Shown piece after piece: positions 24,153-48,619 of a stretch of 64,000 nucleotides of DNA. The notes beneath the pieces are model-generated. The model saw only the letters and a program-made list of their open reading frames with translations, did not search any database and had not been told where the DNA came from. The DNA is taken from IMG/VR virus record IMGVR_UViG_3300025890_000019; one strand, given 5' to 3'. The position numbers and the translations under genes are program-made. Source of the stretch: a virus. Positions within the stretch are counted from its first letter, which is position 1. Each line of letters opens with the position of its first letter.

Positions 24153-25115
24153 ATGGCTAGTTTAAAATCATTACTCGGAACAAAACAGGACGCTTTCGTA
24201 TCGGTTGAAGAAAACAACCTAGAGAAAGGGCGTATCTACGTTTACACAAACGGAGCAAACTATTCTAGATTATGGTGTGGATTTTGTTTCCATCCAGCCG
24301 TGGCAGGGACTGCAATAGTTGAAACTTGGGGTTCAGGTGGATCAGGTGCAGAGATGTGTTGTTGTGGATTTGGAACACCAGGTAACGCAGGTGCTTATGT
24401 TAAAAAAGAAATTTCAATGTCTCCAGGAGACTACATCTGCGGATGTACAGGTTTAAGTTGTGGTAACTCAGACACACTTTGTTTTAGAGGTTGCTCAGAA
24501 CCAGCTCAAGTAAGATTTTGTATATCAGGCGCAGAGACTTGTGCTTGTGCAGAAGGCGGAAAAGGTGGAGTAACTTATTGTTCATCTCAAGCCAGTTTTT
24601 ATTGTTGTTACAGAGCAAACGGTTTCTGTGTAACAAGAACAAACAACGACAACTGCGGAATTGTTTGTAACCAATGCGATGGTTCATGGTGTGCTCAAGC
24701 ATACGGTGGTCAAACTAACGTGTGTGGAAGAATTTCATGTGTATCAGCATTTGGTTGTTATCCATCATGTATTTGTATGTTCCATCATCACATACCTACT
24801 CCAGCAGGAATGGGTTCTAAACTTGGTAGAATGATCACTTACACAAATGATGACAATAATGGAACACAGAATTGGTCAGGTATGGGACACTATCACCATT
24901 TAGCAAATTTAGGTTCAGGAAGATTTCCAACAGGCGGTGTGCCTTGGGCAAGTTGTTGGGACGGTGGAAGAACTTGTGGATGTTATCAAAACGATGGTTG
25001 TATACCTCAGATGCCGATTGGTACAGGAGGAAGAGGACCTAACCCATGTCCAGGTGTTAGAGATCACGCAATCAGAGGTGGACACGGAGGAGTACGAATC
25101 AAATTCGTAAGTTAA
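24153..25115 (+). CDS. Cysteine-rich glycine-rich-domain protein 1 (putative fibre tip)
   Basis: 320 aa, 31 Cys by hand count; ETWGSGGSG.EMCCC, PGNAGAYVKK, C-term GG.GGVRIKF. Confidence 0.75.
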   Translation: MASLKSLLGTKQDAFVSVEENNLEKGRIYVYTNGANYSRLWCGFCFHPAVAGTAIVETWGSGGSGAEMCCCGFGTPGNAGAYVKKEISMSPGDYICGCTGLSCGNSDTLCFRGCSEPAQVRFCISGAETCACAEGGKGGVTYCSSQASFYCCYRANGFCVTRTNNDNCGIVCNQCDGSWCAQAYGGQTNVCGRISCVSAFGCYPSCICMFHHHIPTPAGMGSKLGRMITYTNDDNNGTQNWSGMGHYHHLANLGSGRFPTGGVPWASCWDGGRTCGCYQNDGCIPQMPIGTGGRGPNPCPGVRDHAIRGGHGGVRIKFVS

Positions 25116-25119
25116 TTTT

Positions 25120-26136
25120 ATGGCTAGTTTAACAACATTACTTCAAACCAAATACGATTTTTCAGTAGGAAATGAGACTAACCTTGAAAAAGGTAGAATT
25201 TATCAATATTATCCAGGTACATCAAGAGGAACAAACTTTAGATGTCACGTGTGTTTCGTTGCACCATCAGATGGTACAGCAACCATAGAAATATGGGGAG
25301 CAGGTGGAAGTGGCGGAAAAATGTGTTGTTGCGGTGGAGGAATTCCAGGTAACCCAGGTGGTTATGCTAAGAAAACAATCGCAATGGCTGAAGGTTGTTA
25401 CGTTTGTGCAATTATTGGACTGTCATGTGGTAACTCAGACACACTTTGTTTTAGAGGTTGCTCAGAACCAACTCAAGTGTGTTGGTTTGGTGACGCAGGT
25501 GGTGATGGTTGTATATGTGCCCAAGGTGGTATAGGTGGAAGAACTTGGTGTTCAACTGGTAGTTCAATCTACTGTTGTGCAGTGGCGGCTAACTTCTGTA
25601 ACACACAGGGTGGCGGAACTTATTGCGGAATTGTTTGTAACTTTATGGATTCAGCATCATGTCCTCAATTCTGTGCTTTTGCATATGGTGGAGACACAAA
25701 CTGTTATGGTGGATTTAGTTGTCATTACTTTAGAGGATGTCAACCAAACTGTAACTGTAGACAGGTTCCAGTTAATAAATTTCCTCCAGGAATGATTTCA
25801 ACAGAGGGTGGTGAAGTACACTACACAATGGATTCAGACAACGGAAGATCACAATGGTCAGGAATGGGCGGTTGGATGAATGCTTCACATGGTTTCAACC
25901 TAGCAACACGTAACCCTACAACAGGCGGTCCTTACACTGGTTGTTGGGAAGGTAACAGAAGTTGTGGTTGTTACGATATGCAAGGTTGTAACACTTTTTA
26001 TCCAGCAGGTATTGGAGGACAAGGACCAACACCGTGTGATGGAGTAAGAGATCACGCACACAGAGGTGGTCACGGATTAATGAGAATTAAATTTATTTCA
26101 CCAACAGATGAATACGATCTACCAGCAGTACCGTAG
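25120..26136 (+). CDS. Cysteine-rich glycine-rich-domain protein 2
   Basis: 338 aa, 31 Cys; EIWGAGGSGGKMCCC; colinear with its neighbours. Confidence 0.75.
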   Translation: MASLTTLLQTKYDFSVGNETNLEKGRIYQYYPGTSRGTNFRCHVCFVAPSDGTATIEIWGAGGSGGKMCCCGGGIPGNPGGYAKKTIAMAEGCYVCAIIGLSCGNSDTLCFRGCSEPTQVCWFGDAGGDGCICAQGGIGGRTWCSTGSSIYCCAVAANFCNTQGGGTYCGIVCNFMDSASCPQFCAFAYGGDTNCYGGFSCHYFRGCQPNCNCRQVPVNKFPPGMISTEGGEVHYTMDSDNGRSQWSGMGGWMNASHGFNLATRNPTTGGPYTGCWEGNRSCGCYDMQGCNTFYPAGIGGQGPTPCDGVRDHAHRGGHGLMRIKFISPTDEYDLPAVP

Positions 26137-26163
26137 GTCACAGGAGATAGGATAAATATTATT

Positions 26164-27135
26164 ATGGCAAGTTTAAAAGGATTATTAACTACTAGAAACC
26201 CAGCAGAGATGATTGAAGACAATCTCGAAACTGGTTACATTTATTCATATACATCAGGCACAAACTACACAAAATTCTGTAATGGTATTTGTTGGACAGC
26301 AAGAGTTGACGGTACAGCAGAAATAGAAGTTTGGGGAGCAGGTGGATCAGGTTCAAGAATGTGTTGTTGTGGTGACGGATTACCAGGTAACGCAGGAGCC
26401 TATGTTAAAAAATCAATCACAGTAGAAGCAGGTGACACAATGACAGGTCAAACAGGACACAGTTGTTATGCTCACCCACTATGTCACTCAGGATGTTCAG
26501 AACAATCAGAAATTTGTTGGATCACAGCCGCAAATGGAAACGGATGTGTCTGTTCAAGAGGTGGATTTGGTGGTAAATCAATGTGTACAACAGGATCATC
26601 TTTATTCTGTTGTTTCAGAGCACAAGGTTTTTGTTATACAAAATGTAACAACGACAACTGTGGATTAGTATGTAACGTGTGTAACGGACACTGGTGTTCA
26701 TTAGGATACGGCGGAGACACTGGCAAAAACTGTTGCGGACAGTTTTCATGTGCTAGTTTCTTTGGATGTTGTCCACACTGTAAGTGTAGATTCCAACAAC
26801 ACGTGGCTACACCAGCAGGATTATTTGCAGACGAAGGTGCATTGATCACGTTCCAAAAAGAATCAGATGGAACTCCAATGTCACAATGGTCAGGAAACCA
26901 ATTATTTCAGTGGTATGCGGCACTTAACTTGGCAACAAAAACACCAAGACAAGGTACGCCAGATGCACACTGTTGGAGATCAACTAGATCTTGCGGATGT
27001 TATGAGATGCAAGGTTGTAACAATTACCTACCTGTGGGAGCAGGAGGACTATCACCAAACCCATGTCCGGATGTTAGAGATCACGGAATTAGAGGTGGAT
27101 TTGGTGGAGTAAGAATCAAGTTTGTTGCTAGTTAA
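26164..27135 (+). CDS. Cysteine-rich glycine-rich-domain protein 3
   Basis: 323 aa, 32 Cys; EVWGAGGSGSRMCCC; own ATAAATA at 26152-26158. Confidence 0.75.
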   Translation: MASLKGLLTTRNPAEMIEDNLETGYIYSYTSGTNYTKFCNGICWTARVDGTAEIEVWGAGGSGSRMCCCGDGLPGNAGAYVKKSITVEAGDTMTGQTGHSCYAHPLCHSGCSEQSEICWITAANGNGCVCSRGGFGGKSMCTTGSSLFCCFRAQGFCYTKCNNDNCGLVCNVCNGHWCSLGYGGDTGKNCCGQFSCASFFGCCPHCKCRFQQHVATPAGLFADEGALITFQKESDGTPMSQWSGNQLFQWYAALNLATKTPRQGTPDAHCWRSTRSCGCYEMQGCNNYLPVGAGGLSPNPCPDVRDHGIRGGFGGVRIKFVAS

Positions 27136-27177
27136 TAGTAACAGAATGATAAATAAAAGTATAAGAGGATATAAACA

Positions 27178-27834
27178 ATGGCAATAGCACAAGCATTTAC
27201 AATAGCAGTACCAAATGAACCATTCGTGAATGATTTTTCAGATGGTATCGAACAAGCGGCAACCTACAACGGTGAAAGATGGATCAAGTTCCAATACGAT
27301 GCAACTACAGGCGTAATTAAAAACGTGATTGGAAACGGTGACACTCAAGAAGAAATGACTGAAAATGAAGGTCCTTGTATGGAAGGTCATCTTCCAGGAA
27401 TAATTGATGCACAAGCACATCCACTACATGCGGCAATGATCACAAAATGGTATGATTCAGGCGAAAAAGCAGATTATTCAGAAGATTTAGGTACAACAGA
27501 CGCTGACGGCAATGCTGAAACTTGGGGATTTGTTTGGATAGACGGTCAAGGTCTTCTTGGACAAATTTGGGATCTAGAAACAATAAAATACGTAGACAAT
27601 GCCATTGTAGCACCAACGTTCAAAGAACATGGAACTACAGAAGAAATGTTTACTGAAAGTGTAACCAACATGATAGCAAACTGCACAACAGAGTTGGCTA
27701 GAACTGGTGTTTATACTACAGACGAAGCGGCGGCAATCACAGCACACAAAACAATGTTGGAAGGTATATCAACAAAGTATGATGGTGTGTCTTTTTGGAA
27801 AATTCCTTTTCCAGCATCACCTGACTTCAAGTAA
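27178..27834 (+). CDS. Hypothetical protein, possible fibre assembly chaperone (paralog of 27883)
   Basis: 218 aa, acidic; N-term VPNEPFVNDFS and C-term helix + WKIPFP..P reminiscent of tail-assembly chaperones; follows the fibre-tip genes. Confidence 0.55.
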   Translation: MAIAQAFTIAVPNEPFVNDFSDGIEQAATYNGERWIKFQYDATTGVIKNVIGNGDTQEEMTENEGPCMEGHLPGIIDAQAHPLHAAMITKWYDSGEKADYSEDLGTTDADGNAETWGFVWIDGQGLLGQIWDLETIKYVDNAIVAPTFKEHGTTEEMFTESVTNMIANCTTELARTGVYTTDEAAAITAHKTMLEGISTKYDGVSFWKIPFPASPDFK

Positions 27835-27882
27835 TCACTTTTAACAGTCATCAACTTTAACTAGCAATAAATATTTCTAGTT

Positions 27883-28551
27883 ATGAGTTTAGCCACCAGC
27901 AATCTTAATCACATTACATTCCAAATGGAAATTCCTGACGAACCCTATGTGGATAATTTTAGTCAAGGACGTACACATACAGCCCACTACACCGGAGAAA
28001 CATTTTTAAAAATGGCTGTTGAAGACAGTACTGGTTTGATTGGAGAATGTTTGTGGGCGGCAGAATCACTAGAACTGCTTGAACAAAGAATCTGTCATCC
28101 CGAGCCAGGGCATTCTACTTTAGTAATAGATGCTAGAAATAATCCATGGGAAGCGGCATATATTAGAAACACATACTCACACGACGAAGTGCCTAACTAC
28201 GAAGAAGATGTAGGGCAAGTGGACAGTGATGGCAATCCTATAATATGGGATTATTCTTGGGGTCATGTGTTGAATCAGATTTATTACATAAACGATTTAA
28301 AATACATCAATGGTGAATTTGTAAAACCTAGATTCAGACTGCATCAACACACAAATGAAGAAGTACACAGAGATGTTGTCAAGCATATTGAAATGTGTGA
28401 CAGAGAATTGGCAAGAGATTTAGTTTACCGTGACAATGAAAGAACAGCCATTGAAAATTGTAAAGCACAATGGATAGTTATACGAGACAATTTTAGTCAT
28501 GTGCTTCATTGGAAGTTAAAATATCCTGACATGCCATTAATCAAACCATAG
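27883..28551 (+). CDS. Hypothetical protein, possible fibre assembly chaperone (paralog of 27178)
   Basis: 222 aa; IPDEPYVDNFS ... C..ELAR..VY..E..AI ... WKLKYP..P. Confidence 0.55.
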   Translation: MSLATSNLNHITFQMEIPDEPYVDNFSQGRTHTAHYTGETFLKMAVEDSTGLIGECLWAAESLELLEQRICHPEPGHSTLVIDARNNPWEAAYIRNTYSHDEVPNYEEDVGQVDSDGNPIIWDYSWGHVLNQIYYINDLKYINGEFVKPRFRLHQHTNEEVHRDVVKHIEMCDRELARDLVYRDNERTAIENCKAQWIVIRDNFSHVLHWKLKYPDMPLIKP

Positions 28552-28600
28552 AGTCATTATTACATTCATACAAAATATTAATCTATAAGTAATTGTACAA

Positions 28601-29554
28601 ATGAATACACAACAAAAAAGACCCAAAGCATTTTTACTCAATGGTGGAATAGGAAGAATTATATCTGCTATACCTGCCTTAGAAAAATATCAAGAAGAAG
28701 GAAACGATCCAGATTTTATCATTGTGATAGAAGGTGAATGTGATATCCTAAAAGGACATCCAACATTGGATTCAAAAACTTATGACATGTATCATAAAAA
28801 TTTATTCCACACAAAACTAGTCAACATGGATATTGTAAGTCCTGAACCATACAGAGTGCATGATTATTTTAATCAAAAATGTAATATTGCACAGGCATTC
28901 GATATGTTGATAAACAAAAAAGGTATTAGAGAATTACCTAAATCAACATTAGTGTTAAACAAAGAAGAATTAATTGCAGGACAAAAAGCAATAATCGAAG
29001 TAAAAGAAAAATTAAAAAAAGAAAAAGTTGTTGTGATTCAACCCTTTGGAAGAGCAATACAACAAATTGATGGCTCTTTTGTTGATAAAACAAACAGAAG
29101 TATTGAATTTTTTAATTTAAAAAATTTAATCAAAAAATTACAGGAAAAAGATTTTGCAGTTATGCTGATGAGTGAGTTTGGTATAGACTTTAAAGATGCA
29201 GGATTCCCTGACGAAGTAGCAATGCCTGAAAAAGTATCAATAAGACAATGGGCCGCAATTATAAAACATGCTGATCATTTTTTAGGGTGTGATTCTTTAG
29301 GACAGCACCTTGCTTACAGTTTAGATGTACCATCAAGTGTGATATTTGGTGCAACATATCCTGAAAATACTTCATATAAAAAATCAGAAAACTTTAATCA
29401 TATTGATCTAGGACAAATGGAACGTGAATATGATCCAATTAGAATCACAATGGATGAAAGAATCAGCAGAAAAAATGAAAAAATAATGGCAATGTCGCCT
29501 GAAATAGAAGATTATGTAATTGCCGCAGTCAATGGTGAACCAATAGAGGAATAA
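28601..29554 (+). CDS. GT9-like (heptosyltransferase-fold) glycosyltransferase A
   Basis: FLLNGGIGRIISAIPAL; VVVIQPFG; ADHFLGCDSLGQHLAYSLDVPSSVIFGAT matches the GT9 pattern F.G.DSG..HLA.A...P...FG.T. Confidence 0.7.
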   Translation: MNTQQKRPKAFLLNGGIGRIISAIPALEKYQEEGNDPDFIIVIEGECDILKGHPTLDSKTYDMYHKNLFHTKLVNMDIVSPEPYRVHDYFNQKCNIAQAFDMLINKKGIRELPKSTLVLNKEELIAGQKAIIEVKEKLKKEKVVVIQPFGRAIQQIDGSFVDKTNRSIEFFNLKNLIKKLQEKDFAVMLMSEFGIDFKDAGFPDEVAMPEKVSIRQWAAIIKHADHFLGCDSLGQHLAYSLDVPSSVIFGATYPENTSYKKSENFNHIDLGQMEREYDPIRITMDERISRKNEKIMAMSPEIEDYVIAAVNGEPIEE

Positions 29555-29556
29555 CA

Positions 29557-31386
29557 ATGGATGATATAGAAAAATATAACAAAACGGGATATATTGCCGC
29601 AATAGCCAGAGGACACAACGCAGGTGTTTGTCTTTTAAAAGACGGTGAAGTGGTTTTTTCAATTGAAGAAGAACGTTTATCTAGAAGAAAATATGATGGT
29701 GGGCCGTATGCATCCATGGTGGAGATATTAAAATACACAGACAAGATTGATTATCTTGTTGTTGCTCACACACAAGGTTTAGATGATAGATCAACAGGTA
29801 GAGTTGATTATTCAGGTGACGATGTGTACACAGGGATAGCAAGAAAATTAGGATTAATTGATAGACACGTGCAAGACACAAAACATCCTCAGGTGATAGA
29901 TTTAGCACACATTCATCACAAACTACATGCCGCATGTGCGTTTTATAGATCAGGATTTGACAAAGCAGTTGCAGTTATAGTTGACGGTGCTGGAACTTTT
30001 ATTCCAATTAAAAACAGTATTTCTGGAGAAATCACAGTGTTTGAAGTTGAAAGTATTTTCAGTTGTGATTATCCAAATGATATTTTTGCATTGTATAAAC
30101 ATTATGGTACGGGAGAAGCAAGTCCAGGAGCATTTTATCCAGACTTTGCTTCTGATTCCATAGGCGAGCCAGGCAAAACACACCAAGCATTGTTCACAGA
30201 CCATGCTGGTATTGTAAAAGTTTATGAAGCAGTTACACAGTATTGTGGATTCTCGGCAATCGAAGCAGGTAAAACAATGGGATTATTTCCTTATGGAAAA
30301 CCAAATGACATGGTTCCTAAACTTTTTAAGAAGGAAGGGTATTATTCTTTATCAGATAGGAATTTTATTATACCAACATATCCAAATGCTTCCATAGTGA
30401 ACAGTGGACTTTATCCTTATATTGATGAAAACCCTCAATCAGATGCCAAAGACGATTGGACAACATTACAAAATAGGAGAGATCTAGCATATGCAGTACA
30501 AACTGAATCACAAAAAGAATGTTTAGACTTAATTTACAAAGCAGTAAAATTAAGTGGTTGTAAAAACGTTGTATTTTCAGGAGGATACGGATTGAACTGT
30601 GTTGCTAATTATTATTATCTAGAACAATTAAGAAAAGATGGCATAAACTTTTATGCTGAACCAGTATCAAATGATGCAGGAACGGCAATGGGTGCGGCGA
30701 TGTTGTTTTATTACAGTCTCACTCAATCAAAAGAAAAGAAAGTTGATGAACCTACATTATACCTTGGACCAAAAAGAACATACACATCAGATCAAATTGA
30801 AAAAGTGTGTGAACAAGACGGTGTAGAATTATCAGATGCAACCAATGAAGAAGTAGTAAAAATTATCACTGATAAAAATATTGTTTCAGTGTTCCAAGGA
30901 GCCAGTGAAAACGGTCCTAGAGCATTGGGTAACAGATCAATATTATACGATCCAAGAGATCCAAACGGTAAAGATCATGTAAACAAAGTGAAACATAGAG
31001 AATATTTCAGACCTTTTGCTGGAACCATATTGCATGAATACGTGCATGAATGGTTCGATTTAAGAGGCATGGACGAAACCCCTCACATGATGTATGCAGT
31101 AAATTGTCAGCCAGGAATTGAAGAAAAAATACCTAGCATCATACACGTTGACGGAACTTGCAGAATACAATCTGTGAAAAGAGAACAAAATCCGTTGTAT
31201 TATGACTTGATTAAAGAGTTTCATAAGCAAACAGAATGTCCGATAATTTTCAACACATCATTTAATTTAGGCGGAGAGCCATTAGTAGAAACATTAGAAG
31301 ATGCTGTGAGAACATTAGTACACAGTGAAATAGAATATTTGTTTTTGCCTGAATACAATAAATTAATAAAGGTAGCAAACAAATGA
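29557..31386 (+). CDS. O-carbamoyltransferase (TobZ/NodU/CmcH family)
   Basis: 609 aa; LLKDGEV..IEEERLSRRK, HHKLHAACAFY, VDGAG, GK.MGL.PYG, SGG.GLNCVAN, DAGTA.GAA, E.GPRALGNRS, K.RE.FRPFA, HVDGT.RIQ, NTSFN..GEPLV. Confidence 0.92.
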   Translation: MDDIEKYNKTGYIAAIARGHNAGVCLLKDGEVVFSIEEERLSRRKYDGGPYASMVEILKYTDKIDYLVVAHTQGLDDRSTGRVDYSGDDVYTGIARKLGLIDRHVQDTKHPQVIDLAHIHHKLHAACAFYRSGFDKAVAVIVDGAGTFIPIKNSISGEITVFEVESIFSCDYPNDIFALYKHYGTGEASPGAFYPDFASDSIGEPGKTHQALFTDHAGIVKVYEAVTQYCGFSAIEAGKTMGLFPYGKPNDMVPKLFKKEGYYSLSDRNFIIPTYPNASIVNSGLYPYIDENPQSDAKDDWTTLQNRRDLAYAVQTESQKECLDLIYKAVKLSGCKNVVFSGGYGLNCVANYYYLEQLRKDGINFYAEPVSNDAGTAMGAAMLFYYSLTQSKEKKVDEPTLYLGPKRTYTSDQIEKVCEQDGVELSDATNEEVVKIITDKNIVSVFQGASENGPRALGNRSILYDPRDPNGKDHVNKVKHREYFRPFAGTILHEYVHEWFDLRGMDETPHMMYAVNCQPGIEEKIPSIIHVDGTCRIQSVKREQNPLYYDLIKEFHKQTECPIIFNTSFNLGGEPLVETLEDAVRTLVHSEIEYLFLPEYNKLIKVANK

Positions 31387-32363
31387 GCAAAAAAACAGCG
31401 ATATTTTTAAATGGTGGTGCTGGTAGAATGATAAGTTCTATCCCAGCAGTAGAAAAATATCTTGAAGAAAATCCTGAAAAGGATCCAATACTAGTGTGCG
31501 AAGGTGGAACAGATGCTTTCAAAGGACACCCTAAATTGTATTTTAGAGCCTACGACAGTTGGCATAAAAATTTATTTCAAGAACTGCTTAAAGATAGAGA
31601 ATTAATCAGTCCTGAGCCATACAGAATTTGGGAATATTACAATCAAAAATGTAGCCTTGCTCAAGCATACGACATTGCCATCAATGACAAAGGTATTAGA
31701 GATTTGCCAGCACCAACTATTAGACTGAGCAAAGAAGAGATACTAATGGCAAGAAAAATGATTGCTGAAGTAAAGGAAAAAACAGGCAAAAACAAAATTG
31801 TTGTGGTTCAACCATTTGGACGAGGTGCTCAGCCTGAAAACATTACTGAAAAACAAATGAAAGACGGCAAACAGCCAGACATCACAGACGTCACTGGCAG
31901 AAGTATTGAACTAAAAAATATTTGGAGCATTGTAAAAAAACTATCTAAAAAATATGGAGTTATGATGATGAGTGAATTCCCACTAGAATTTAAACATCAC
32001 ATGTCGGCTCCTGTGGCAACACCAATGAATGTACACATAAGAATATGGATGGCTGTGATTAAACAAGCCAATCATTTTGTTGGTTGCGACTCTGTTGGAC
32101 AACACCTTGCATACGCATTTAATGGAACTGCTACGGTGTTGATAGGTTCTACATATCCCATAAACACATCATTTCCTGACTCAGATAATTTCGATATTAT
32201 TGATCTTGGATCTGAAGATAGAGTGTATTCTCCCATAAGAATCACTTCAGACGAATTGAGTGACAGATTGAATGAAGGTATCATGGCTATGGATGATCGA
32301 GCAGAAGATGATGTTATTAGATCTGTTGAAAAGATGCTTAAACACAGTAAAAACAAGCAGTAA
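31383..32363 (+). CDS. GT9-like glycosyltransferase B
   Basis: FLNGGAGRMISSIPA; VVVQPFGR; ANHFVGCDSVGQHLAYA; paralog of 28601; ATGA overlap with the carbamoyltransferase. Confidence 0.7.
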   Translation: MSKKTAIFLNGGAGRMISSIPAVEKYLEENPEKDPILVCEGGTDAFKGHPKLYFRAYDSWHKNLFQELLKDRELISPEPYRIWEYYNQKCSLAQAYDIAINDKGIRDLPAPTIRLSKEEILMARKMIAEVKEKTGKNKIVVVQPFGRGAQPENITEKQMKDGKQPDITDVTGRSIELKNIWSIVKKLSKKYGVMMMSEFPLEFKHHMSAPVATPMNVHIRIWMAVIKQANHFVGCDSVGQHLAYAFNGTATVLIGSTYPINTSFPDSDNFDIIDLGSEDRVYSPIRITSDELSDRLNEGIMAMDDRAEDDVIRSVEKMLKHSKNKQ

Positions 32364-32432
32364 TACCCAAAATACAGTAGTAATACAATAGTTCCAAATT
32401 AGGTAAATACACTATAATAAGGATTATTCTAT

Positions 32433-32867
32433 ATGTTTGATGTATCAAGATTTTTTGGAAAAGGTGACAGAAATACTCTGTTGATGAAGAATGGGTTAAA
32501 CCTATCTTACAACGGTCCATATTCTGTGGTCGAAGAAGGCATGATTTTAGACCAATGGCATGTGAACACATTCAGTACAGCAGAATACACAATCAGTGTA
32601 GATTATGACACAAACAATAAAGAAATTTTAAAAGTACTTGTATCAGCAAGTCCAAATCAAAGCAGTCTATCAATATATGGTAGATCAAATCTAGGTAATA
32701 AATTAATCAAGATTGCAAGTGAAGTTAACAATTCATATGTTAGAATTAAGATAAATCCAGAAGATAAATCAGGAACAGAAAAATACACTGGTTCTAAGAT
32801 TATCTTTGGTGCAACATATTTTGCCACATTGAATGCTTTGGTTGGAGGTACGCAAGTAACAGAATAA
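32433..32867 (+). CDS. Hypothetical (probable virion) protein
   Basis: 144-aa beta-rich ORF within the structural cluster. Confidence 0.55.
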   Translation: MFDVSRFFGKGDRNTLLMKNGLNLSYNGPYSVVEEGMILDQWHVNTFSTAEYTISVDYDTNNKEILKVLVSASPNQSSLSIYGRSNLGNKLIKIASEVNNSYVRIKINPEDKSGTEKYTGSKIIFGATYFATLNALVGGTQVTE

Positions 32868-32886
32868 TAAATATGGATATAGCACA

Positions 32887-34749: not shown

Positions 34750-34756
34750 AAAAAGC

Positions 34757-40700: not shown

Positions 40701-41791
40701 ATCTATTCAGTTACTCAGGTCAAGGATTACGACTATCAACAATTAGACAAACTGTATTCTTAATGAGATTGGCTCCTTCAGTATCCAATGCCTTAACAGG
40801 TGACTTGGGAGACAGAGATCTATTGAACAGAGCCCAGTTGCTACTGGATGGTATTGAGATTACCACAGAGCCAGTTGCGGCAGGTGGTGTACAAGGTCAG
40901 TTGGTGATTCAAGGAATTATTAATCCACAAAACTATCCAATTGATCCAGCAGACATAGGTTGGACAGGACTACAAGGAACAGCACAAGGTGGACAACCAA
41001 GTTTTGCGGAGATTGCTCCGGGTGGTTCAGTTAACTGGAACGGTGGTGCATCAATCACAACTGCGACAGCAGACACGATAGCAGAAATGACATCTTCATC
41101 TACTCACTGGTTTAACTTGGGTGGTAACAGAAACTATATGTATTTCTTGGAAGCACAATGGGAAGGCAAAGGACACGTGGTAGGTATGCGTGTAACCTCA
41201 GCACAATTCCCTAGCAACACAGTGGTTACACAGATTAGTGATAATGGTTCATATTACTTTGTAAGATTTTCAAACAGACACACAGGTGTATCGGGCGGTG
41301 ATGCTGTGAACTTTGCATTTGGTGGTGACTTTGCAAGTACTAACTACTTGTTCTTTGATCCAACATCATGGGAAGCCTCAAACGCTGTTGCAGGTACTGA
41401 AGTGGATACAGCAACAACAACTGAATTTCCACCAGGCACAACTGTACAAAGTGTACAGGCTAAAACTGTGTTTGGGACAACAGAATACTACAGAGTTGAC
41501 TTTAACCAAACATTCAATGGAACGATTGCCGCGGCAAGCAGTATATCATTTAACTTTGGTCAACCTCCTTATGCACAACCAGGTGAAACTATTTTCTCTT
41601 TTGTTGCACAACCGGGTGAAAGAGCAACACTTGCCTTAGACAAGATCAAAGCATTAACTAACACTACCTTGGGAGGTAGAGGTACGTTCCCGAATGGTCC
41701 TGACGTGTTAGCGATCAATGTATTTAGAACTGCTGGTACAGGCGATGTATCCGCAACAGTTACACTGCGTTGGTCAGAAGCACAGGCTTAA
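34757..41791 (+). CDS. Giant virion structural protein (2344 aa) with 8 tandem Ig-like modules
   Basis: Modules containing G..LGG.TP.ND..I.V..V at ~37.1-39.0 kb; LRV..P.S..DADFEYG.Q.TKW and FIHRPFDGGV, RQSK.Y.RYQSGKG lectin-like segments. Confidence 0.75.
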   Translation: MAKKRIQTYKFTPGIPESGNLYPNAWAQINANKEWLKDESTAFIDAKIVTDTAADLYPNSSLRYLNNREYVKAEVAAWVAVQVAGNISPFAGYTKTATQIKTDVEAVIQAAYLDMRYGGNENIRKQSQTYYVDGVLQLASAGEPELAYWTKAKQIIDLYIFTGLAYSSINTDGLSQNTSGSNAEPAGKTGFAANMAVIDNVVDNGILNLPALQSSAYVFANFVYDSYLCERDMGYNIDGLLKDIRYGGNEQSRYNASTYWVGTVSVLDGDRQPEIATKNEIRNIINNYVIPGTAYASRQSPVVTQQTILGTPGESGATARVTSLVGIITDVITNGLDNLPALVTNGISSVKIPERVELSEILLITNTSSNAVLYTFNDPAKGATVTYKREYPEDTSNPTAFVDPDFPKAFHGNDTITTIFLNADTSTDDATDQLQIFIEDDEIRTRPYDFGTDAIERLRVAQPESMLDADFEYGLQPTKWQAIATQRGYPSIYEVPGTDFDIQTVTSDASAGTQGIGSSLITVTTIGPHNFEAGQPFTITGFDNSVAGASRAAGSFVVNTVPNSLSFTYYGKAKVGSVNPTTISTNFTQLREGDFYTGAAIGFPSFSIDSNGSSGNFVTSLATLSGATILPYTGVQPEIGAPLTGTGIQTGTQITAVNGSGGALASPTVTGDYVAGATAITVQDSAGIIQNSVIDRGDGFAVTIISVAGNDLTLSAPLTQDLIGDITQYPGLAGTNYTPQGQLGRFDIFRVGGSYSVSLVTNGQVGSGQDYAVGDAIVVSGTDLGGATPANDAIVTVESVDTGGEILTASVTGTAFTGTGTASAVATQLQGNNGTGAQINVTKNAGSYTVALNSPSYTGVGLASYAGSQGAGAIFDIDVDAGVYTATVDTAGTGYIVNDVVRLGGSTFGGTGANDLDIRVTAVGGSGEIQTISVAGTAPNQTVNYTSPVYTTPSAGGVTAAFTVTRTGTVYSAVVTTIGAGYSATDVLTILGTQLGGATTANDATITVDSVDGNGGILTFTVAGTAVNTQTYPNQNTGTNISGTNATFDVAISGTGYTVTLNNAGDDYGVGQTHTIEGTSLGGETPANDVTIVIDTVTGTGASGIATITPTGTAALEGTSGYTVGDQFFVSGTDLGAATPTNDAYVSVSTVNGNGGITALTISGTGTDANVDYTSATWTTSGSGTGAVVDINRTGTVYTATFTNTGASFAAADTITILGTAVGGLTPANDVTITVDTVTAGAIATYTVAGTAVNTQTFTDVNKSARTPSGLTMDVTLSGGSYTLAIANGGSGYGLNQTYKIEGTSVFGASPTNDLTFTIAGINSVVGGQVTSVSAATGTANTGTGNALNVAGSNRAPIGVGAQFSITRTNDTDSSTDYTEVTVVQDGSNYAVGDKVVISGASLGGSTPANDITVRVQSITSFGGVVNNTHSGTAIGGTGISVYSSVTISDPVSQAIPLSATISYSALATMRVNFTTPHGLVPGNAFLVVIQSDDGSNNHILASGPFLATSIPSPTSLTYQVRSPGAITDAGWQGSIYGRPDSFFIHRPFDGGVQLGTGGPAHGAQAIRQSKKYIRYQSGKGCMYTTGALFAPSYDILDLSADGTASGSTITVTTDDVDHNLQVGAIIRLVGIATSGYDGTYTITSITNERTFTVIAQITLGGTTPEFTDQPQVSLYQWNGATVRSGIFDDQNGIFWEYDGQNTNAVQRTATRQLAGTITVTPDSNNVTGVGTRFREQIKAGDRVVIRGMTHVVSGITDNTTMSVTPDYRGVNTSSGVKMCAVVDKKAKQSEFNKDVLDGTGPSGYKWDVSKMQMIGIQFSWYGAGFIDWMTRGQTGNFIFVHRMRNSNVNTEAFMRTGNQPVRYEVTNEGPGAKLFENMDATQTTLTVEDASFFPTTGGTVYIDNEIITFTGITGDTLTGCTRAAQLTNFAAGATRNYSAGAAAAHFRNTGVVLISNTASPIISHWGSAYLTDGNFDEDRGYLFSYSGQGLRLSTIRQTVFLMRLAPSVSNALTGDLGDRDLLNRAQLLLDGIEITTEPVAAGGVQGQLVIQGIINPQNYPIDPADIGWTGLQGTAQGGQPSFAEIAPGGSVNWNGGASITTATADTIAEMTSSSTHWFNLGGNRNYMYFLEAQWEGKGHVVGMRVTSAQFPSNTVVTQISDNGSYYFVRFSNRHTGVSGGDAVNFAFGGDFASTNYLFFDPTSWEASNAVAGTEVDTATTTEFPPGTTVQSVQAKTVFGTTEYYRVDFNQTFNGTIAAASSISFNFGQPPYAQPGETIFSFVAQPGERATLALDKIKALTNTTLGGRGTFPNGPDVLAINVFRTAGTGDVSATVTLRWSEAQA

Positions 41792-41913
41792 TGCTCCAAC
41801 TCATCAAACATATATGCGAGACGTGTGGGTGTGAACAACACTGCAAAAAATCGTGTGGAGAATGTCTAGATTGTCCAGACTGTGTTTGTAAGGAATGTAT
41901 TAACAAAGACTGA
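41791..41913 (+). CDS. 40-aa metallothionein-like Cys-rich peptide (not in the supplied ORF track)
   Basis: MLQLIKHICETCGCEQHCKKSCGECLDCPDCVCKECINKD: 10 Cys + 2 His; TAATG coupling to the giant gene; next ATG 4 nt downstream. Confidence 0.7.
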   Translation: MLQLIKHICETCGCEQHCKKSCGECLDCPDCVCKECINKD

Positions 41914-41917
41914 TAAG

Positions 41918-42505
41918 ATGAATTATAATAGGCTTCGTGTACTGGAAAGAGAAAACCCACACAAAGAACCTGAACGATGTTTTGTTTTACAAAAATTAAT
42001 TAAAAAACACAATTTAAAAAAAGGCGCTGAACTAGGAGTTAGAAGCGGCGAACTTTATTATTTTTTGTTATCTCATTGTCCTGAACTTACCCTGATTGGT
42101 GTAGATTTGTACGAAAGTCAACCAAATGGAAGTACTGATCCTCAACGAAAAAGAACATATGATCAACCTCATATGGGGTTTAGTTATGATCACTCACTGT
42201 ATTACAATTTCATAAAAGAGTTACAAAATGAATTTGGAACAAGAGCTCAATTTATAAAAGATTGGACTTCAAATGCGTCTTTATTAATTGAAGATAATTC
42301 ATTAGATTTTGTGTTTTTAGATGCTGATCATGGATTTGATGGATGTTCGCAAGATATTGAAAAATGGACACCAAAAGTTAAATCTGGTGGATTTATAACA
42401 GGACACGACTTCTGGTTGTCAGGAGTAAAAAAAGCAGTACAAAAATATTTTGGCAACGATTATAAGAAACACCCAGATCACGTCTGGATACATCAAAAAA
42501 AATAA
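41918..42505 (+). CDS. Class I SAM-dependent methyltransferase (Methyltransf_24-like)
   Basis: GAELGVRSG, LIGVD.Y, LDFVFLDADH.F.G...DI..W..KVK.GG.I.GHD; start moved from 41882 to 41918 to fit the upstream small ORF. Confidence 0.82.
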   Translation: MNYNRLRVLERENPHKEPERCFVLQKLIKKHNLKKGAELGVRSGELYYFLLSHCPELTLIGVDLYESQPNGSTDPQRKRTYDQPHMGFSYDHSLYYNFIKELQNEFGTRAQFIKDWTSNASLLIEDNSLDFVFLDADHGFDGCSQDIEKWTPKVKSGGFITGHDFWLSGVKKAVQKYFGNDYKKHPDHVWIHQKK

Positions 42506-42506
42506 A

Positions 42507-42884
42507 TTATTTTTCTTCTATTTTTTGTGAATCGCCAGGAATGATTCTATAATTGTCTTCTGGATCGTCAGCAGTGCTCACTTCAGTGATGCTACCTCGA
42601 TCAGTTAAACATTGAACTTGATGTGGCATTAGAGGTAAATTTCTCCATGTTTCGCCTTCTTTAAGTTCTTTTGTAAGTAACGTTGCAGTTTGAGTATCAA
42701 TCCAACTTAACAAAAATTTACCCTCATTTACAAACCAAGTTTCATCTTTGGTTTTATGAAAATGCATTGAAAATTTAGCACCTTTTCTTTCAAACACCAT
42801 TATTTTACCACAGTATTTGTCGTTGGAAGCCCAAATTAATTCGTATCCCCAACCTTTGTCTACTTTACCTTCTTTATTAATCAT
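42507..42884 (-). CDS. Cupin, mannose-6-phosphate-isomerase/ketol-isomerase-like
   Basis: KGWGYE.IW...KYCGKI....G.KFSMHFH..KDETW.V; PL.PH; EVST. Confidence 0.75.
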   Translation of the reverse strand: MINKEGKVDKGWGYELIWASNDKYCGKIMVFERKGAKFSMHFHKTKDETWFVNEGKFLLSWIDTQTATLLTKELKEGETWRNLPLMPHQVQCLTDRGSITEVSTADDPEDNYRIIPGDSQKIEEK

Positions 42885-43692
42885 TTAGATATTGCTCAAC
42901 TGTTTTATAATTTATTGTAACATTTTTATTTAATTCTGTCAAATCTGCACAGGTGTAAGACTGATATTGCCCTTTTAATTTTTCTGGCATAGGAATTGTT
43001 TCTATTTTGGCATTGTATTTTTTAGCCACAGATTCTGCTACTGATTGAAATGACGTTGCTGTACCTGTACCAACATTGTAGATACCACTGATGTCTTTTT
43101 GTAGCATTTGACACTGCACATTGCACACATCATCTACACACACAAAATCTCTAAGATATTGGTCACTATTTTCGAATAACTTGATCACACCACTTTCTTT
43201 TGCTTGTTTTGAAAATTTAGTTACTGGAGATGCTTGATCACCTTTGTGTTCTTCATGTTGTCCATACACATTAAAATATCTAAACCCCTGTACTAATATT
43301 TTAAATTCTCCCATGGCTTGTTGAATGAATCTATCAAACAAATATTTGCTCCAAGCATATGGTGATTGAGGATAAACAGGACCATTTTCTACAAAACTGT
43401 TTGTGTTGCCATACACACTAGCAGAACTGGCATATTGAAAGTTTACTCCCATGGTGTCACACATCTGTAACAATTTCATACTGTATTCATAATTCTGATC
43501 CATGATTAATTCTACATTTCTTTCTGTTGTAGAACTGATTGCTCCAAGATGAATTACCCAATCATACAGGCTGGGATCAGGAAAAGTGTTAGAAGCATAT
43601 TCAAACATGGTCACTTCATAATTCATATCATTTAAATGCTTACACAAATTTTTTCCTATAAATCCTTCCGCTCCTGTTACGCAAATTTTCAT
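42877..43692 (-). CDS. hldD: ADP-L-glycero-D-manno-heptose 6-epimerase
   Basis: VTGAEGFIG, HLGAISSTTE, YASSASVYG, P.SPYAWSK, RYFNVYG.HE.HKG.QAS, RDFVCVDD, YNVGTG, YQSYT.ADL; start at ATGA overlap with upstream gene. Confidence 0.88.
   Translation of the reverse strand: MKICVTGAEGFIGKNLCKHLNDMNYEVTMFEYASNTFPDPSLYDWVIHLGAISSTTERNVELIMDQNYEYSMKLLQMCDTMGVNFQYASSASVYGNTNSFVENGPVYPQSPYAWSKYLFDRFIQQAMGEFKILVQGFRYFNVYGQHEEHKGDQASPVTKFSKQAKESGVIKLFENSDQYLRDFVCVDDVCNVQCQMLQKDISGIYNVGTGTATSFQSVAESVAKKYNAKIETIPMPEKLKGQYQSYTCADLTELNKNVTINYKTVEQYLND
42914..42942 (-). promoter_or_regulatory. Sigma70-type promoter inside the 3' end of hldD, reading into the cupin gene
   Basis: Minus strand TTGACA-N17-TACAAT with extended -10 TG. 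Confidence 0.6.
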
Positions 43693-44291
43693 TCGTGATT
43701 TCTCCAAAGTTTAATTGTATCATGTGCTTCATTGGGCACAATGGGTTTTATAAATTCGCTTCTATGATCAGCAACGAAATTTATGTTTATGTTGATTCTG
43801 CTCCTAGCATCTGTACAAGTAGATCCTGTGTGTTTCATGTAACTAGGAAACACAACCATTGAATTAGCAACACTGTCGATTTTGTCATCTTCAAACTCTG
43901 TAAAACCATTGTTTGTGTTCACATAATAGATTGCTGTGTAACTCAATGGTATTCCAGTATCAGTATGCATTCCATGAGTGATAATTTTTTCTTTACTTGG
44001 AATATTATTTGCTTTTACTCTGATAAAGGTGTGAGGCTGAAGCACTTCAAATATAGGAAACAACATTTGCCAATATTCTGGTGTAGTCAAAATTTGACTG
44101 ACTTCGTGAAACTTATGAACAAACTGCAATTGATGTTTTTCTTCTGTATCAAATTCTGATTTCTTAACCACGTGATCATTGTAATTCCAAGTAAATGTAT
44201 CATTGGTCATGGTTTTAAAAATATATTCATAGTGCTCTTTTGCCAGTACATCTGTGCATAACATTCTATTATTTCTTATTTCAATTTTCAT
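43689..44291 (-). CDS. 2OG-Fe(II) oxygenase-like protein
   Basis: RVKAN...HGMHTD...TAIYYVNTNNG.T.F....SVANSMVVF....HTGS.CTD..RININ.N (HxD...H..S...R). Confidence 0.75.
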   Translation of the reverse strand: MKIEIRNNRMLCTDVLAKEHYEYIFKTMTNDTFTWNYNDHVVKKSEFDTEEKHQLQFVHKFHEVSQILTTPEYWQMLFPIFEVLQPHTFIRVKANNIPSKEKIITHGMHTDTGIPLSYTAIYYVNTNNGFTEFEDDKIDSVANSMVVFPSYMKHTGSTCTDARSRINININFVADHRSEFIKPIVPNEAHDTIKLWRNHE

Positions 44292-45531
44292 TTTTAACTT
44301 TCTCTAAAATATTTGTGGTTGAAAAACCGTCTACAGTTGGAAATATCACAACTTCAGCCATCTCATTTCCCACTGTGGTTGCCACTGTGTAATCACCACC
44401 TTTCACAATCACATTAGGTTTGATTGTTTGCAATGCTTCTATAGGTGTGTCTTCATGGAACACAACCACTTGATCTACCCAAGGCAATTCCATCAATTGT
44501 TTTTTTCTAATCAATGTATTGTTCAATGGTCTATCATTTCCTTTTAATCTTTTTACACTTTCATCTGCATTTATTCCAACAATCAATTTGTCTCCATGGC
44601 TTTTAGCAAATTTTAATAATTCTAAATGTCCTTGATGTAAAATATCAAACACACCGTTGGTCCAAACCACTGTGTCTTCTATATCGCTGATCTGTACCAC
44701 TGTAACGCCTCGATGTTGTACCACTTTACTGGCACCTTTTAATGCCAACGTACAAGCATCTGTCATGCTGTATCCTTGTTCAACGTATTTTACAATAATT
44801 GCCAACACAGTATCTCCTGCACCACTAACATCTGCTAATTCTACAGCATCACCAGTGATATGTTGATATTCATCTTGACCAACAACATGAATACCGTTGC
44901 CGCCATCTGTCACAATTAACCAATCCCAATTAAATTTTATTCTGAATTGATCAGCAGTTTTAGAATCAAATTTTCCAAACCATTGTTCATATTCTTTCAT
45001 GTTGGGTTTAACCAAATATGCACCTGTATACGATTCAGGATTTTGTTTTGGATCCACATAAACTCTTTTGACAAGATGCACAACGTCATTAACCAACGAT
45101 TGGTTGATTACTCCTTTGTTGTAATCGCTGATCAAAATTACATCATCTTTTTGTAAATTTTTTACCAAATTAATCATGGGCTCAGATTGAGTGTATTGTT
45201 CTTCACGATCCAGCCTCAACAGGTGTTGTCCGTCTGCACCAATCATGCGTGTTTTCACAGTGCTGGTTACAGCATCATTGCTTATGAATGTTTTGATGTT
45301 GTTTTTAAGCAGTATTTCTTGTATTCTATGACCCGGGGCGTCGTTGCCCACGGCACTGTAAAGATGCGTGTCTACGCCGAGATTTGATAGGTTTAAAGCG
45401 AGGTTTCCTGCCCCTCCTATGTTGTAATTGCGGTCATTTTCTTTTAATACCAATGCTGATGCTTCCGGTGATACTTTGGTACAATCACCTTGTACCCACA
45501 CATCCAGCATTACATCTCCAATTATTTTCAT
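44281..45531 (-). CDS. hldE: Bifunctional heptose-7-phosphate kinase / heptose-1-phosphate nucleotidyltransferase
   Basis: IGDVMLD.W.G...SPEA, GGAGN.A.N, SDYNKG, VDPK, KPN..E, DVSGAGDT (PfkB) fused to TNGVFDILH.GH..LL..AK..GD.LIVG.N.D.SVKRLKG..RP, KGGDY, GFSTT. Confidence 0.92.
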   Translation of the reverse strand: MKIIGDVMLDVWVQGDCTKVSPEASALVLKENDRNYNIGGAGNLALNLSNLGVDTHLYSAVGNDAPGHRIQEILLKNNIKTFISNDAVTSTVKTRMIGADGQHLLRLDREEQYTQSEPMINLVKNLQKDDVILISDYNKGVINQSLVNDVVHLVKRVYVDPKQNPESYTGAYLVKPNMKEYEQWFGKFDSKTADQFRIKFNWDWLIVTDGGNGIHVVGQDEYQHITGDAVELADVSGAGDTVLAIIVKYVEQGYSMTDACTLALKGASKVVQHRGVTVVQISDIEDTVVWTNGVFDILHQGHLELLKFAKSHGDKLIVGINADESVKRLKGNDRPLNNTLIRKKQLMELPWVDQVVVFHEDTPIEALQTIKPNVIVKGGDYTVATTVGNEMAEVVIFPTVDGFSTTNILEKVKNEN

Positions 45532-45962
45532 TTGATTAATTTAAGCATTTTAAACACAGTGTCTAATTTAATTTGGTTTGTTTTGTTTTGGAATGTCTTA
45601 CGCAATCCTTGGTGTAATGGTTTGGGCCAGTTACCAAAAGTAACCCAAGCATAGCCATCATGTTCTGTGTTTAGTGTTGGAATAAATTCTTTTTCTACCA
45701 CACACAAATAGGTGTGGTATAAAAAATTTTCATCATTACTGATAAACGTTTCCATTGGAATAGTTTTCTTAATTTGTTGAGTGCCTATTTCTTCTTGAAT
45801 CTCTCTTTGAAGACCTTCCCACAAATTTTTATCTGAAGTTGTAGTACCACCAACCAATCCCCAAACATTATTTTGTTTGCTTTGAGTTCTGTGTAGTAAT
45901 AAAAATCTTTTTGTATCTAGTGTATAGAAGAGTGCTCCACACCCTACAATCTTACTGTTCAT
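45528..45962 (-). CDS. NUDIX hydrolase
   Basis: WGLVGG......E GLQREIQEEIG Nudix box; EH.GYAW; start taken at MNSKIVG. Confidence 0.8.
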   Translation of the reverse strand: MNSKIVGCGALFYTLDTKRFLLLHRTQSKQNNVWGLVGGTTTSDKNLWEGLQREIQEEIGTQQIKKTIPMETFISNDENFLYHTYLCVVEKEFIPTLNTEHDGYAWVTFGNWPKPLHQGLRKTFQNKTNQIKLDTVFKMLKLIK

Positions 45963-45978
45963 ACAATTAATTATGTGA

Positions 45979-48590: not shown

Positions 48591-48595
48591 ATACA

Positions 48596-48619
48596 TATAT
48601 TTATCGGACGATAAATATG
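48596..48619. promoter_or_regulatory. Back-to-back late promoters forming an inverted repeat
   Basis: ATATTTATC-GGAC-GATAAATAT: ATAAATA on minus (48598-48604) and plus (48611-48617) strands between divergent neck genes. Confidence 0.65.

Follow-up and report, generated by a model that had tools for sequence, protein, structure and literature searches.

A candidate module for carbamoyl-heptose tailoring among the tail-fibre genes of T4-like cyanophages

Introduction

The subject of this paper is a set of genes in the IMG/VR virus record IMGVR_UViG_3300025890_000019. The 64,000-nucleotide stretch analysed (the window) is, by profile matches and gene content, the structural region of a T4-like, Kyanoviridae-like cyanomyovirus, with baseplate and fibre genes, sheath, terminase, gp14/gp15 and a gp32-like gene. 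Among the fibre genes lie two genes for GT9-like proteins and one for a carbamoyltransferase, preceded by genes for Cys-rich proteins, and further downstream are genes that would supply an activated heptose. We suggest that these genes form a phage glycan-tailoring module that puts carbamoyl-heptose on a virion appendage protein, a tentative reading to which we give slightly less than an even chance.

Comparable enzymes are known from the inner core of Pseudomonas lipopolysaccharide (LPS), where WaaC, WaaF and the putative carbamoyltransferase WapO (PA5005) give rise to 7-O-carbamoyl-HepII (PMC8005017). The likeness lies in the clustering of two GT9-fold transferases with a NodU-type carbamoyltransferase, in the feeding by ADP-heptose and in the order of events, heptose transfer and then O-carbamoylation, that we propose for the phage. 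The phage enzymes differ in having Arg instead of the catalytic Asp, a non-basic acceptor domain and scores below the equivalog cut-offs; their genes lie among tail-fibre genes, and the hosts are mostly without the heptose/Kdo core.

A second comparison is with the autotransporter heptosyltransferases TibC and AAH, whose substrates, TibA and AIDA-I, are encoded next to them (PMC4358343). TibC has an N-terminal beta-barrel, a beta-hairpin thumb, an iron finger (Cys339, 342, 358 and 370) and Asp110 as catalytic base (PMC4358343). It is a cytoplasmic enzyme that uses ADP-heptose to modify a surface adhesin encoded by the neighbouring gene; the phage proteins share the GT9-like fold, and on the phage side the likeness in substrate is one of gene adjacency only. 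The phage proteins have neither the beta-barrel nor the four-Cys iron finger, and carry Arg at the position of Asp110.

The genes themselves are already known. They have been in GenBank since P-SSM2 (2005) and have been discussed as 'LPS genes' of unknown function: the window set belongs to the cyanomyovirus cluster T4-GC 302-308, present in P-SSM2, S-SSM7, S-CAM1 and S-CAM3, for which alteration of host LPS or a role as stuffer DNA was proposed (PMC1079782, PMC3037559). The families are the same (37-62% identity) and in both cases follow tail fibre and Cys-rich genes. The window differs in that the supply genes are about 9.5 kb off, on the other strand and behind gp14-gp15-NUDIX, that HldE is fused and that the GT9-like gene is duplicated. 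T4-GC 302, the GT9-like gene, is annotated only as 'hypothetical protein'.

Mycobacteriophages have glycosyltransferases in their structural modules that glycosylate their own capsid and tail-tube proteins. Those systems have other transferase families, sugars and targets, with no donor cassette or carbamoylation, and the cyanophage system is a predicted one.

Finally, a phage-encoded carbamoyltransferase of the same superfamily has been described from a metavirome. It acts on 5-hydroxymethylcytosine (5hmC) in DNA and co-occurs with thymidylate-synthase homologues and deaminases (PMC8670742), whereas the window enzyme is flanked by GT9-like genes in a fibre operon.

Results

Organization of the locus

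The genes of the locus are as follows (position in the window, strand, description).

24153-25115, 25120-26136 and 26164-27135, plus: CysA, CysB and CysC, tandem Cys/Gly-rich paralogues of 320, 338 and 323 aa (phrog_4205)
27178-28551, plus: two paralogous genes of 218 and 222 aa, possible fibre assembly chaperones (only the first matches phrog_9740)
28601-29554, plus: GT9-like A, 317 aa (PF01075, 28 bits; fold match)
29557-31386, plus: carbamoyltransferase of the NodU/TobZ/GdmN/NovN family, 609 aa (PF16861, 199 bits; PF02543, 81 bits)
31383-32363, plus: GT9-like B, 326 aa, paralogue of A (phrog_8954, E 1.4e-132)
41882-42505, plus: class I S-adenosylmethionine (SAM) methyltransferase (PF13578, E 1.3e-11)
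42507-42884, minus: small cupin, 125 aa, T4-GC 307 (weak Cupin_2 and Lyx_isomer matches)
42877-43707, minus: HldD-like ADP-heptose 6-epimerase, 276 aa, T4-GC 308 (TIGR02197, 255 bits)
43689-44291, minus: denV-like endonuclease V, 200 aa (phrog_274, E 4e-40)
44281-45531, minus: HldE-like fused heptose-7-phosphate kinase/heptose-1-phosphate adenylyltransferase, 416 aa (PF00294 and PF01467)
45528-48653, minus: NUDIX, gp15 and gp14 neck genes at the head of the minus-strand run, context only (PF00293, PF16724)

Profile searches and a check of the open reading frames (ORFs) recovered every gene named in the original prediction. The gaps between the chaperone-like gene, GT9-like A, the carbamoyltransferase and GT9-like B are 49, 2 and -4 nt, which bears out the tight packing noted there for the last three. 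The supply genes lie about 9.5 kb downstream of the transferases on the opposite strand, and p144, p620 and a gene for a 2344-aa structural protein are located between GT9-like B and the methyltransferase. The minus-strand ORFs for the cupin, HldD-like, denV-like, HldE-like, NUDIX, gp15 and gp14 proteins all overlap or abut, and the start of the HldE-like gene overlaps the NUDIX stop by 4 nt. The heptose genes had been listed as hldE, hldD and a cupin; all three are present, and the list had omitted the denV-like gene between the first two.

A nucleotide search with the transferase and heptose regions gave no match among cultured phages, and a protein-level search was required. At that level the nearest cultured relatives are S-SSM7/S-SSM6a and Sf-FS3 (62% identity for the carbamoyltransferase), then S-CAM3, S-CAM1 and P-SSM2/P-SSM5. 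A 38.5-kb IMG/VR fragment is near-identical to the window.

Co-inheritance of the genes across relatives

Relatives were compared at 80 IMG/VR loci that carry a GT9-like gene. In all 80 this gene adjoins the carbamoyltransferase gene, and in all of them the pair lies between fibre genes, mostly on the same strand. The order in most loci is fibre, s106, s110, two to four Cys-rich genes, chaperone-like genes, GT9-like, carbamoyltransferase, p144, p620 and the giant protein. Cys-rich equivalents are found upstream of the GT9-like gene in most of the loci and also in S-SSM7 and P-SSM2, and chaperone-like genes lie between the two in about 50 of the 80. The second GT9-like copy is seen only in the closest relatives (about 15/80).

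The link to the Cys-rich proteins was examined by a composition scan of all ORFs of at least 150 aa in whole genomes, in place of a sequence search. Cys/Gly-rich proteins were found in all three phages examined that have the GT9-like/carbamoyltransferase pair (three in the window, three in S-SSM7 and two in P-SSM2), always by the GT9-like gene, and none was found among ORFs of this size in the six complete cyanomyovirus genomes without a GT9-like gene. The Cys-rich proteins, the GT9-like protein and this subfamily of carbamoyltransferase are thus a co-inherited core.

The heptose genes are linked to this core more loosely. In P-SSM2, S-SSM7 and about nine of the loci the GT9-like, carbamoyltransferase, nucleotidyltransferase, kinase, small HAD, cupin and epimerase genes are contiguous. 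The run in P-SSM2 and S-SSM7 follows the tail fibre and Cys-rich genes and consists of T4-GC 302 (GT9-like), 303 (carbamoyltransferase), 304 (adenylyltransferase), 305 (kinase), 306 (a small protein), 307 (cupin) and 308 (epimerase). The split layout of the window, with the heptose genes behind the giant gene, occurs in at least eight loci. The heptose kinase and nucleotidyltransferase are present in all seven isolates with a GT9-like gene (S-CAM1, S-CAM3, S-SSM7, S-SSM6a, Sf-FS3, P-SSM2 and P-SSM5), and both metagenomic genomes with a GT9-like gene that are rated 98-100% complete have the adenylyltransferase together with the cupin and the epimerase; in one of the two, the distance from this cassette to the GT9-like gene is 85 kb. 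A strong HldE-type adenylyltransferase was found in 23 of the 44 records of at least 40 kb. Many contigs with a GT9-like gene have no heptose genes, which we considered as counter-evidence and rejected because the records are 12-60% complete and a complete genome related to one group of them has its cassette at that distance of 85 kb.

The test of co-occurrence proposed with the original prediction came out in its favour for the pair, the Cys-rich genes and the cassette. On independent occurrence of the modules, the result depends on the direction: the cassette is found without a GT9-like gene in P-TIM68, S-T4, S-SM2 and Sf-CH8, where it is non-structural, hli-proximal and accompanied by other glycosyltransferases, but the GT9-like gene was in no case seen in a complete genome without the cassette. 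The heptose cassette is thus a supply module that is required at the level of the genome yet separable.

The methyltransferase had been placed in the same pathway. It is present in none of the 80 loci and in one of five relatives that share the layout of the window, and for this reason we have dropped it from the module; it is probably a sporadic insert. Supply, transfer and carbamoylation do behave as one genetic unit, and so the claim of a single pathway stands for these steps and not for methylation. In the sole relative carrying the methyltransferase (G007) it is 100% identical to that of the window while GT9-like A is only 90% identical, which suggests a recently moved gene. The S-SSM7 cassette holds an unrelated methyltransferase.

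The relatives include IMG/VR records of 364 kb (L023) and 353 kb (L049). Completeness is put at 98-100% for relatives of about 350-364 kb and at 26-51% for fragments of 90-190 kb. The lineage may be one of jumbo cyanomyoviruses.

The GT9-like proteins

The original prediction had named three profiles as a check on the transferases. PF02543 and PF16861 matched the carbamoyltransferase; PF01075 matched GT9-like A only, at 28 bits against a cut-off of 22 and over residues 208-262, in the C-terminal part, and GT9-like B has no Pfam match of its own. A and B are 52% identical and both match phrog_8954 (E <=1e-125), which is listed as function unknown. No NCBIfam equivalog scores higher than 31 bits (cut-off 467), and the proteins are far under the cut-offs for WaaC, WaaF and WaaQ. 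A phmmer search of PDB sequences with GT9-like A gave no match, and a family profile and a fold search were required. The family was collected by an exhaustive profile-free search (390 clusters at E<=0.001), from which 62 diverse members were aligned.

The AlphaFold2 (AF2) model of GT9-like A has a mean confidence (pLDDT) of 95.6, with the catalytic domain starting at residue 9. It shows the GT-B two-domain fold and is nearest to solved GT9 enzymes: the top 30 Foldseek matches in the PDB are all GT9 enzymes (TibC, WaaF, WaaC and the Veillonella GT9 protein 3tov; E 4.5e-11 to 2.8e-08), and TibC is the best of them (E 4.5e-11). Chloroplast NDH-PSI subunits with the GT9 fold and without a known enzymatic role follow at ranks 31, 36 and 42.

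The donor-binding motif D-(S/T)-G-x-x-H is kept, the family sequence GiDSvgqH (G-x-D-S-x-G-Q-H) aligning with SVDTGLSH in WaaC and NDSGLMH in WaaF. The basic residue of the K/R-x-W region is also present, in the R166-S167 area that aligns with PAKRW of WaaF. In the family alignment D231, H236, R166, Q147 and P148 are invariant (62/62) and S232 is found in 61/62. At the N-terminus, the family motif GGxGR-x5-PAL is in exact register with SSMGD-x5-PAL of WaaC, and WaaF reads WVGD. This places Arg19 where WaaC and WaaF have the catalytic Asp13; Arg occurs here in 59 of the 62 members and by position corresponds to the Asp110 site of TibC, in the first beta-alpha turn of the catalytic domain. The assignment rests on a low-scoring local hmmsearch alignment of the motif together with the register of secondary structure, and hhalign of the family profile with E. 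coli WaaC and WaaF covered the C-terminal domain only (probability 37% and 62%).

The acceptor (N-terminal) domain has, by a crude measure, a median net charge of -1.5 in the family (pI 6.2) and +2 in the window copies, compared with +8 in WaaC and +6 in WaaF. GT9-like A has three Cys residues (47, 94 and 230), none in a conserved column. A predicted complex of GT9-like A with CysC scored 0.01, which is neither for nor against binding.

Taken together, the model and alignment indicate that the family has the heptosyltransferase fold and an intact donor-binding motif, with Arg replacing the catalytic Asp. The proteins probably work like the LPS heptosyltransferases or TibC. We have not filed them as members of either group because two features that define the LPS enzymes and the TibC family are lacking.

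Distant members of the family also have genes for fibre, tail or sheath proteins as neighbours; they come from Vibrio phage D505, Aeromonas phage HJ05 and a metagenomic contig. On that contig (L153:5270-6946) a 558-aa fusion of GT8 and GT9-like domains is encoded directly after three tail-fibre genes with Collar domains.

The carbamoyltransferase

The PF16861 and PF02543 scores are far above the cut-offs of 27 and 24 bits, and the Kae1-like N-terminal plus YrdC-like C-terminal architecture is present. In the PDB the protein matches 7xb6, GdmN, NovN and TobZ (E 2e-51 to 1e-43), with the H-H-x-x-x-H region aligned, and there is a weak match to the HypF C-terminal domain (E 0.005). The NodU equivalog NF041651 scored 125 bits against a cut-off of 1000, short of orthology to a characterised member.

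A second subfamily, 37-40% identical, is found in S-CAM8, P-RSM4, S-SSM5 and S-RIM44 (L086-L089). Its neighbours are 2-oxoglutarate (2OG)-Fe(II) oxygenases and a ferrochelatase-like gene or, in S-RIM44, where the gene is split in two, ThyX. This second subfamily may be of the DNA-modifying type.

The Cys-rich and chaperone-like proteins

CysA, CysB and CysC contain 31, 31 and 32 Cys residues (9.2-9.9%) and 15-18% Gly. The AF2 model of CysC (pLDDT 83) has its best structural matches in the fibre of cyanophage Pam3, the tail tip of mycobacteriophage Bxb1 and the glycine-rich domain of ALK/LTK. The viral models that it resembles include proteins of S-CAM3 and P-SSM2, minor tail proteins, Syn9 gp38 and many proteins labelled 'glycine-rich domain'. 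Judged from these fold matches, the likeliest role of the Cys-rich proteins is that of a distal fibre protein or adhesin, which would make them virion components, and CysA to CysC are probably fibre-tip or adhesin proteins.

At the level of sequence the Cys-rich proteins are so diverged that profiles barely connect them. A tblastn search of the phage collection with CysC found nothing, probably because of low-complexity masking, and a profile of the Cys-rich family (A2) matched P-SSM2 weakly and missed S-SSM7 despite its three such genes. The first of the 218/222-aa genes matches phrog_9740 (unknown function) and has protein-atlas neighbours with PF16778 at 0.88, a lead only. The chaperone-like label for the two genes is possibly correct and is a weak lead.

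The heptose supply genes

The best NCBIfam matches of the HldE-like protein are the HldE (RfaE) models, and it scores below cut-off with all three of them (NF008454, 311 against 521 bits; TIGR02198, 223 against 345; TIGR02199, 147 against 181.5). Its two domains are fused in the window and are separate proteins, T4-GC 305 and 304, in other cyanophages. The HldD-like protein scores 255 bits with TIGR02197 against a cut-off of 274.6 and has a shortened N-terminal region. However, its top four PDB matches are all ADP-L-glycero-D-manno-heptose 6-epimerases (AGME; E. coli 1eq2, E 6e-57) and the catalytic regions of short-chain dehydrogenases/reductases, Ser (ASSAS) and Y-x-x-S-K, align with 1eq2. 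By their sequence matches both proteins clearly belong to these families despite the low scores.

Neither gmhA nor gmhB was detected: every sizeable ORF in the window is without a SIS or HAD domain, the nearest record gave no SIS match, and no true gmhA was seen in any heptose cassette viewed. The cupin is 37-39% identical to the cupins of P-SSM2 and S-SSM7. Wherever the kinase, nucleotidyltransferase and epimerase occur among the loci the cupin is with them, as it is in G016 and G031; a sequence search gave no informative solved homologue.

The T4-GC 306 protein of S-SSM7 (L001:19465-19800) and P-SSM2 (L002:12903-13247) is called 'phosphoheptose isomerase' in RefSeq. It has 111-114 aa, a DxDxT start and a weak LNS2 match, and is probably a small HAD protein, a GmhB-like phosphatase, and not GmhA.

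The denV-like gene (32% identity to P-SSM2 denV) is interposed in the heptose run and is outside the pathway. A 2OG oxygenase was considered for 43689-44291 and ruled out by the phrog_274 and P-SSM2 denV matches. There is also a denV-like gene inside the S-SSM7 cluster (L001:15370-15924), and a Pyr_excise gene adjoins a distant GT9-like gene (L157).

The host background

A phage psbA gene led to a host genome, and 151 genomes of the family of that host were scanned. A strong HldE-type adenylyltransferase was found in 4/151, a gmhA-like gene in 27/151 and a GT9 gene in 28/151. Heptose and Kdo are reported to be absent from the LPS of cyanobacteria (PMC4515613). Most hosts would thus supply neither the donor nor heptose-7-phosphate, which explains why the phage carries its own cassette. 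Because the hosts are mostly without gmhA and the cupin is always found with the kinase, adenylyltransferase and epimerase, the cupin is the obvious candidate isomerase; it may be a non-orthologous sedoheptulose-7-phosphate isomerase that replaces GmhA.

In about one-sixth of the picocyanobacterial genomes a gmhA-like gene lies beside an ORF that encodes about 500 aa, including a weakly matching adenylyltransferase domain, and GT9 genes are also present (for example G169:C1:156950-157736 and G087:C1:91190-92224). From their sequences these genes are probably for strain-specific heptose-bearing surface glycans.

Expression context

The T4-type late promoter core ATAAATA occurs on the plus strand between 17 and 48 kb at 17968, 23721, 26152, 27149, 27867 and 32867. 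Each of the six precedes a structural gene by 5-34 nt; the genes are those for the fibre, s110, CysC, the two chaperone-like proteins and p620. On the minus strand it occurs once, at 48598, where the gp14-to-cupin run begins. No terminator-like site was found on the plus strand between 23 and 35 kb. The suggestion that the heptose genes, which sit downstream of a late unit, are expressed during assembly is consistent with these late-promoter-like motifs ahead of the module genes, and the module may be co-expressed late in infection.

An exception to the placement of ATAAATA just upstream of genes is an overlapping plus/minus pair at 48598-48617. The minus-strand copy lies inside the called 5' end of gp14 (GTG at 48653), which suggests that the true start of gp14 is probably further downstream.

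Elsewhere in the window, an ORF at 56576-57013 (plus strand), among structural and packaging genes, has a TnsA-like endonuclease N-terminal domain (PF08722, E 4e-19).

Discussion

In the scheme that we propose, the HldE-like and HldD-like proteins would make the ADP-heptose donor from the host pool of sedoheptulose-7-phosphate, and the cupin may act as the isomerase. The two GT9-fold paralogues would transfer heptose to the acceptor and the NodU/TobZ-type enzyme would O-carbamoylate the transferred sugar, as proposed for WapO on HepII of the Pseudomonas LPS core. The acceptor would most likely be a virion appendage protein from the same late fibre operon, with the Cys/Gly-rich fibre-tip proteins as the first candidates. 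The identities of the genes, the folds, the donor-binding motif and the pattern of co-inheritance are observed; the exact donor, the carbamoylation of heptose and, above all, the acceptor are the parts that we infer.

The fixed position of the genes in the fibre block, the link to fibre-tip proteins, the non-basic acceptor domain and the occurrence of distant members by tail genes all argue for a virion acceptor. Between a virion protein and a host envelope glycan we regard the former as having close to an even chance. A more specific version can also be put forward, in which a GT9 family with Arg for Asp heptosylates Cys-rich fibre tips of the polyglycine type in the cytoplasm, perhaps at an unusual nucleophile (a Cys thiol or a carboxylate, for instance), followed by a carbamoyl cap, with a donor made from Calvin-cycle sedoheptulose-7-phosphate by way of a cupin in place of GmhA. 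In this detail the proposal is doubtful.

Several observations weigh against a carbamoyl-heptose on the virion. Arg in place of the catalytic Asp in 59/62 members makes the transferase activity itself only putative. The sugar may be other than the canonical L,D-heptose, since neither HldE nor HldD reaches its equivalog cut-off and no gmhA or gmhB was found. The cassettes that occur without a GT9-like gene, in hli-proximal non-structural clusters, look like host-surface glycan synthesis, and the GT9 and heptose-like genes in about one-sixth of the host-family genomes indicate that heptose-bearing host glycans exist. Additionally, the literature searched gave no example of a cyanophage virion protein that is glycosylated.

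These points lead to the alternative that the carbamoyl-heptose is put on a host envelope glycan late in infection, masking the receptor of the Cys-rich adhesins, and that this either blocks superinfection or keeps progeny off cell debris. This agrees with the published reading of the cluster as 'LPS genes' (PMC1079782, PMC3037559), with structural matches to WaaF and WaaC that are as good as that to TibC, with the company of other glycosyltransferases that the cassette keeps in other cyanophages and with the GT9 genes of 28/151 host-family genomes. Co-inheritance does not discriminate, as it would also follow if an adhesin were paired with an enzyme acting on its receptor: the link to Cys-rich proteins and their fibre-tip fold fit Cys-rich substrates and fit masking of a host receptor equally. 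However, the GT9-like/carbamoyltransferase pair is never found in LPS-like clusters and always within the fibre block, and its GT9-like proteins have neither a basic acceptor domain nor the catalytic Asp. Cyanobacterial LPS is generally without the Kdo/heptose core on which GT9 enzymes act (PMC4515613), and the distant relatives in Vibrio and Aeromonas phages and on the metagenomic contig lie among tail genes. We therefore consider remodelling of the host surface unlikely, while giving it real weight, and hold the same opinion of the two effects on superinfection and progeny. The absence of the catalytic Asp also bears on an explanation without any glycosylation, in which an inactive GT9 fold serves as a nucleotide-sugar scaffold or chaperone in the maturation of the Cys-rich tips and the protein itself is carbamoylated, for example on a Cys thiol as by HypF on HypE. 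The non-enzymatic subunits of the NDH-PSI complexes, the strict link to proteins with about 10% Cys and the weak HypF match of the carbamoyltransferase would all suit it. The invariant D231, S232, H236, R166 and Q147-P148, however, argue for retained nucleotide-sugar binding and catalysis, a GT8 and GT9-like fusion exists, O-carbamoyltransferases of sugars and hydroxyl groups (E 1e-43 to 2e-51) are far nearer matches of the carbamoyltransferase than HypF is (E 0.005), and the link to ADP-heptose supply at the genome level would be left unexplained. We think this improbable.

A last explanation is hypermodification of DNA, in which the carbamoyltransferase and GT-B enzymes would decorate hydroxymethylated bases to give 5-carbamoyloxymethylcytosine or glucosylated hydroxymethylcytosine of the T4 type. 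The DNA glucosyltransferases of T4 are GT-B enzymes, and denV and a NUDIX gene lie near the module. A phage carbamoyltransferase that modifies 5hmC is also known (PMC8670742). However, thymidylate-synthase homologues and dCMP deaminases are what accompanies the carbamoyltransferases that modify DNA, and here the neighbours are GT9-like and fibre genes in 80/80 loci. The carbamoyltransferase that does adjoin ThyX, in S-RIM44, is of the other subfamily. The genes are within a late structural operon and no hydroxymethylase was found in the window. We give this explanation hardly any probability.

Decoration of a virion appendage protein is therefore the reading that we put forward. In the literature searched we found no proposal of virion glycosylation for this gene set. 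What appears to be new is that T4-GC 302 is a GT9-fold protein with Arg for Asp, that it is strictly coupled to one subfamily of carbamoyltransferase and to Cys-rich fibre proteins with glycine-rich domains, and that the heptose cassette is obligatory at the genome level yet separable, in phages whose hosts mostly lack the pathway.

A large share of marine picocyanobacteria is killed by T4-like cyanophages, whose fibre tips decide which strains are infected. If the adhesins do carry a carbamoylated heptose made from a Calvin-cycle sugar of the host, this would be the first viral protein-heptosylation system, and the decoration would tune host recognition or shield the adhesin. Genes that for twenty years have gone under the names 'LPS genes' or 'stuffer DNA' would then have a concrete function, in a module with cultured carriers (P-SSM2, S-SSM7, S-CAM1 and S-CAM3), and the control of host range would gain a new layer.

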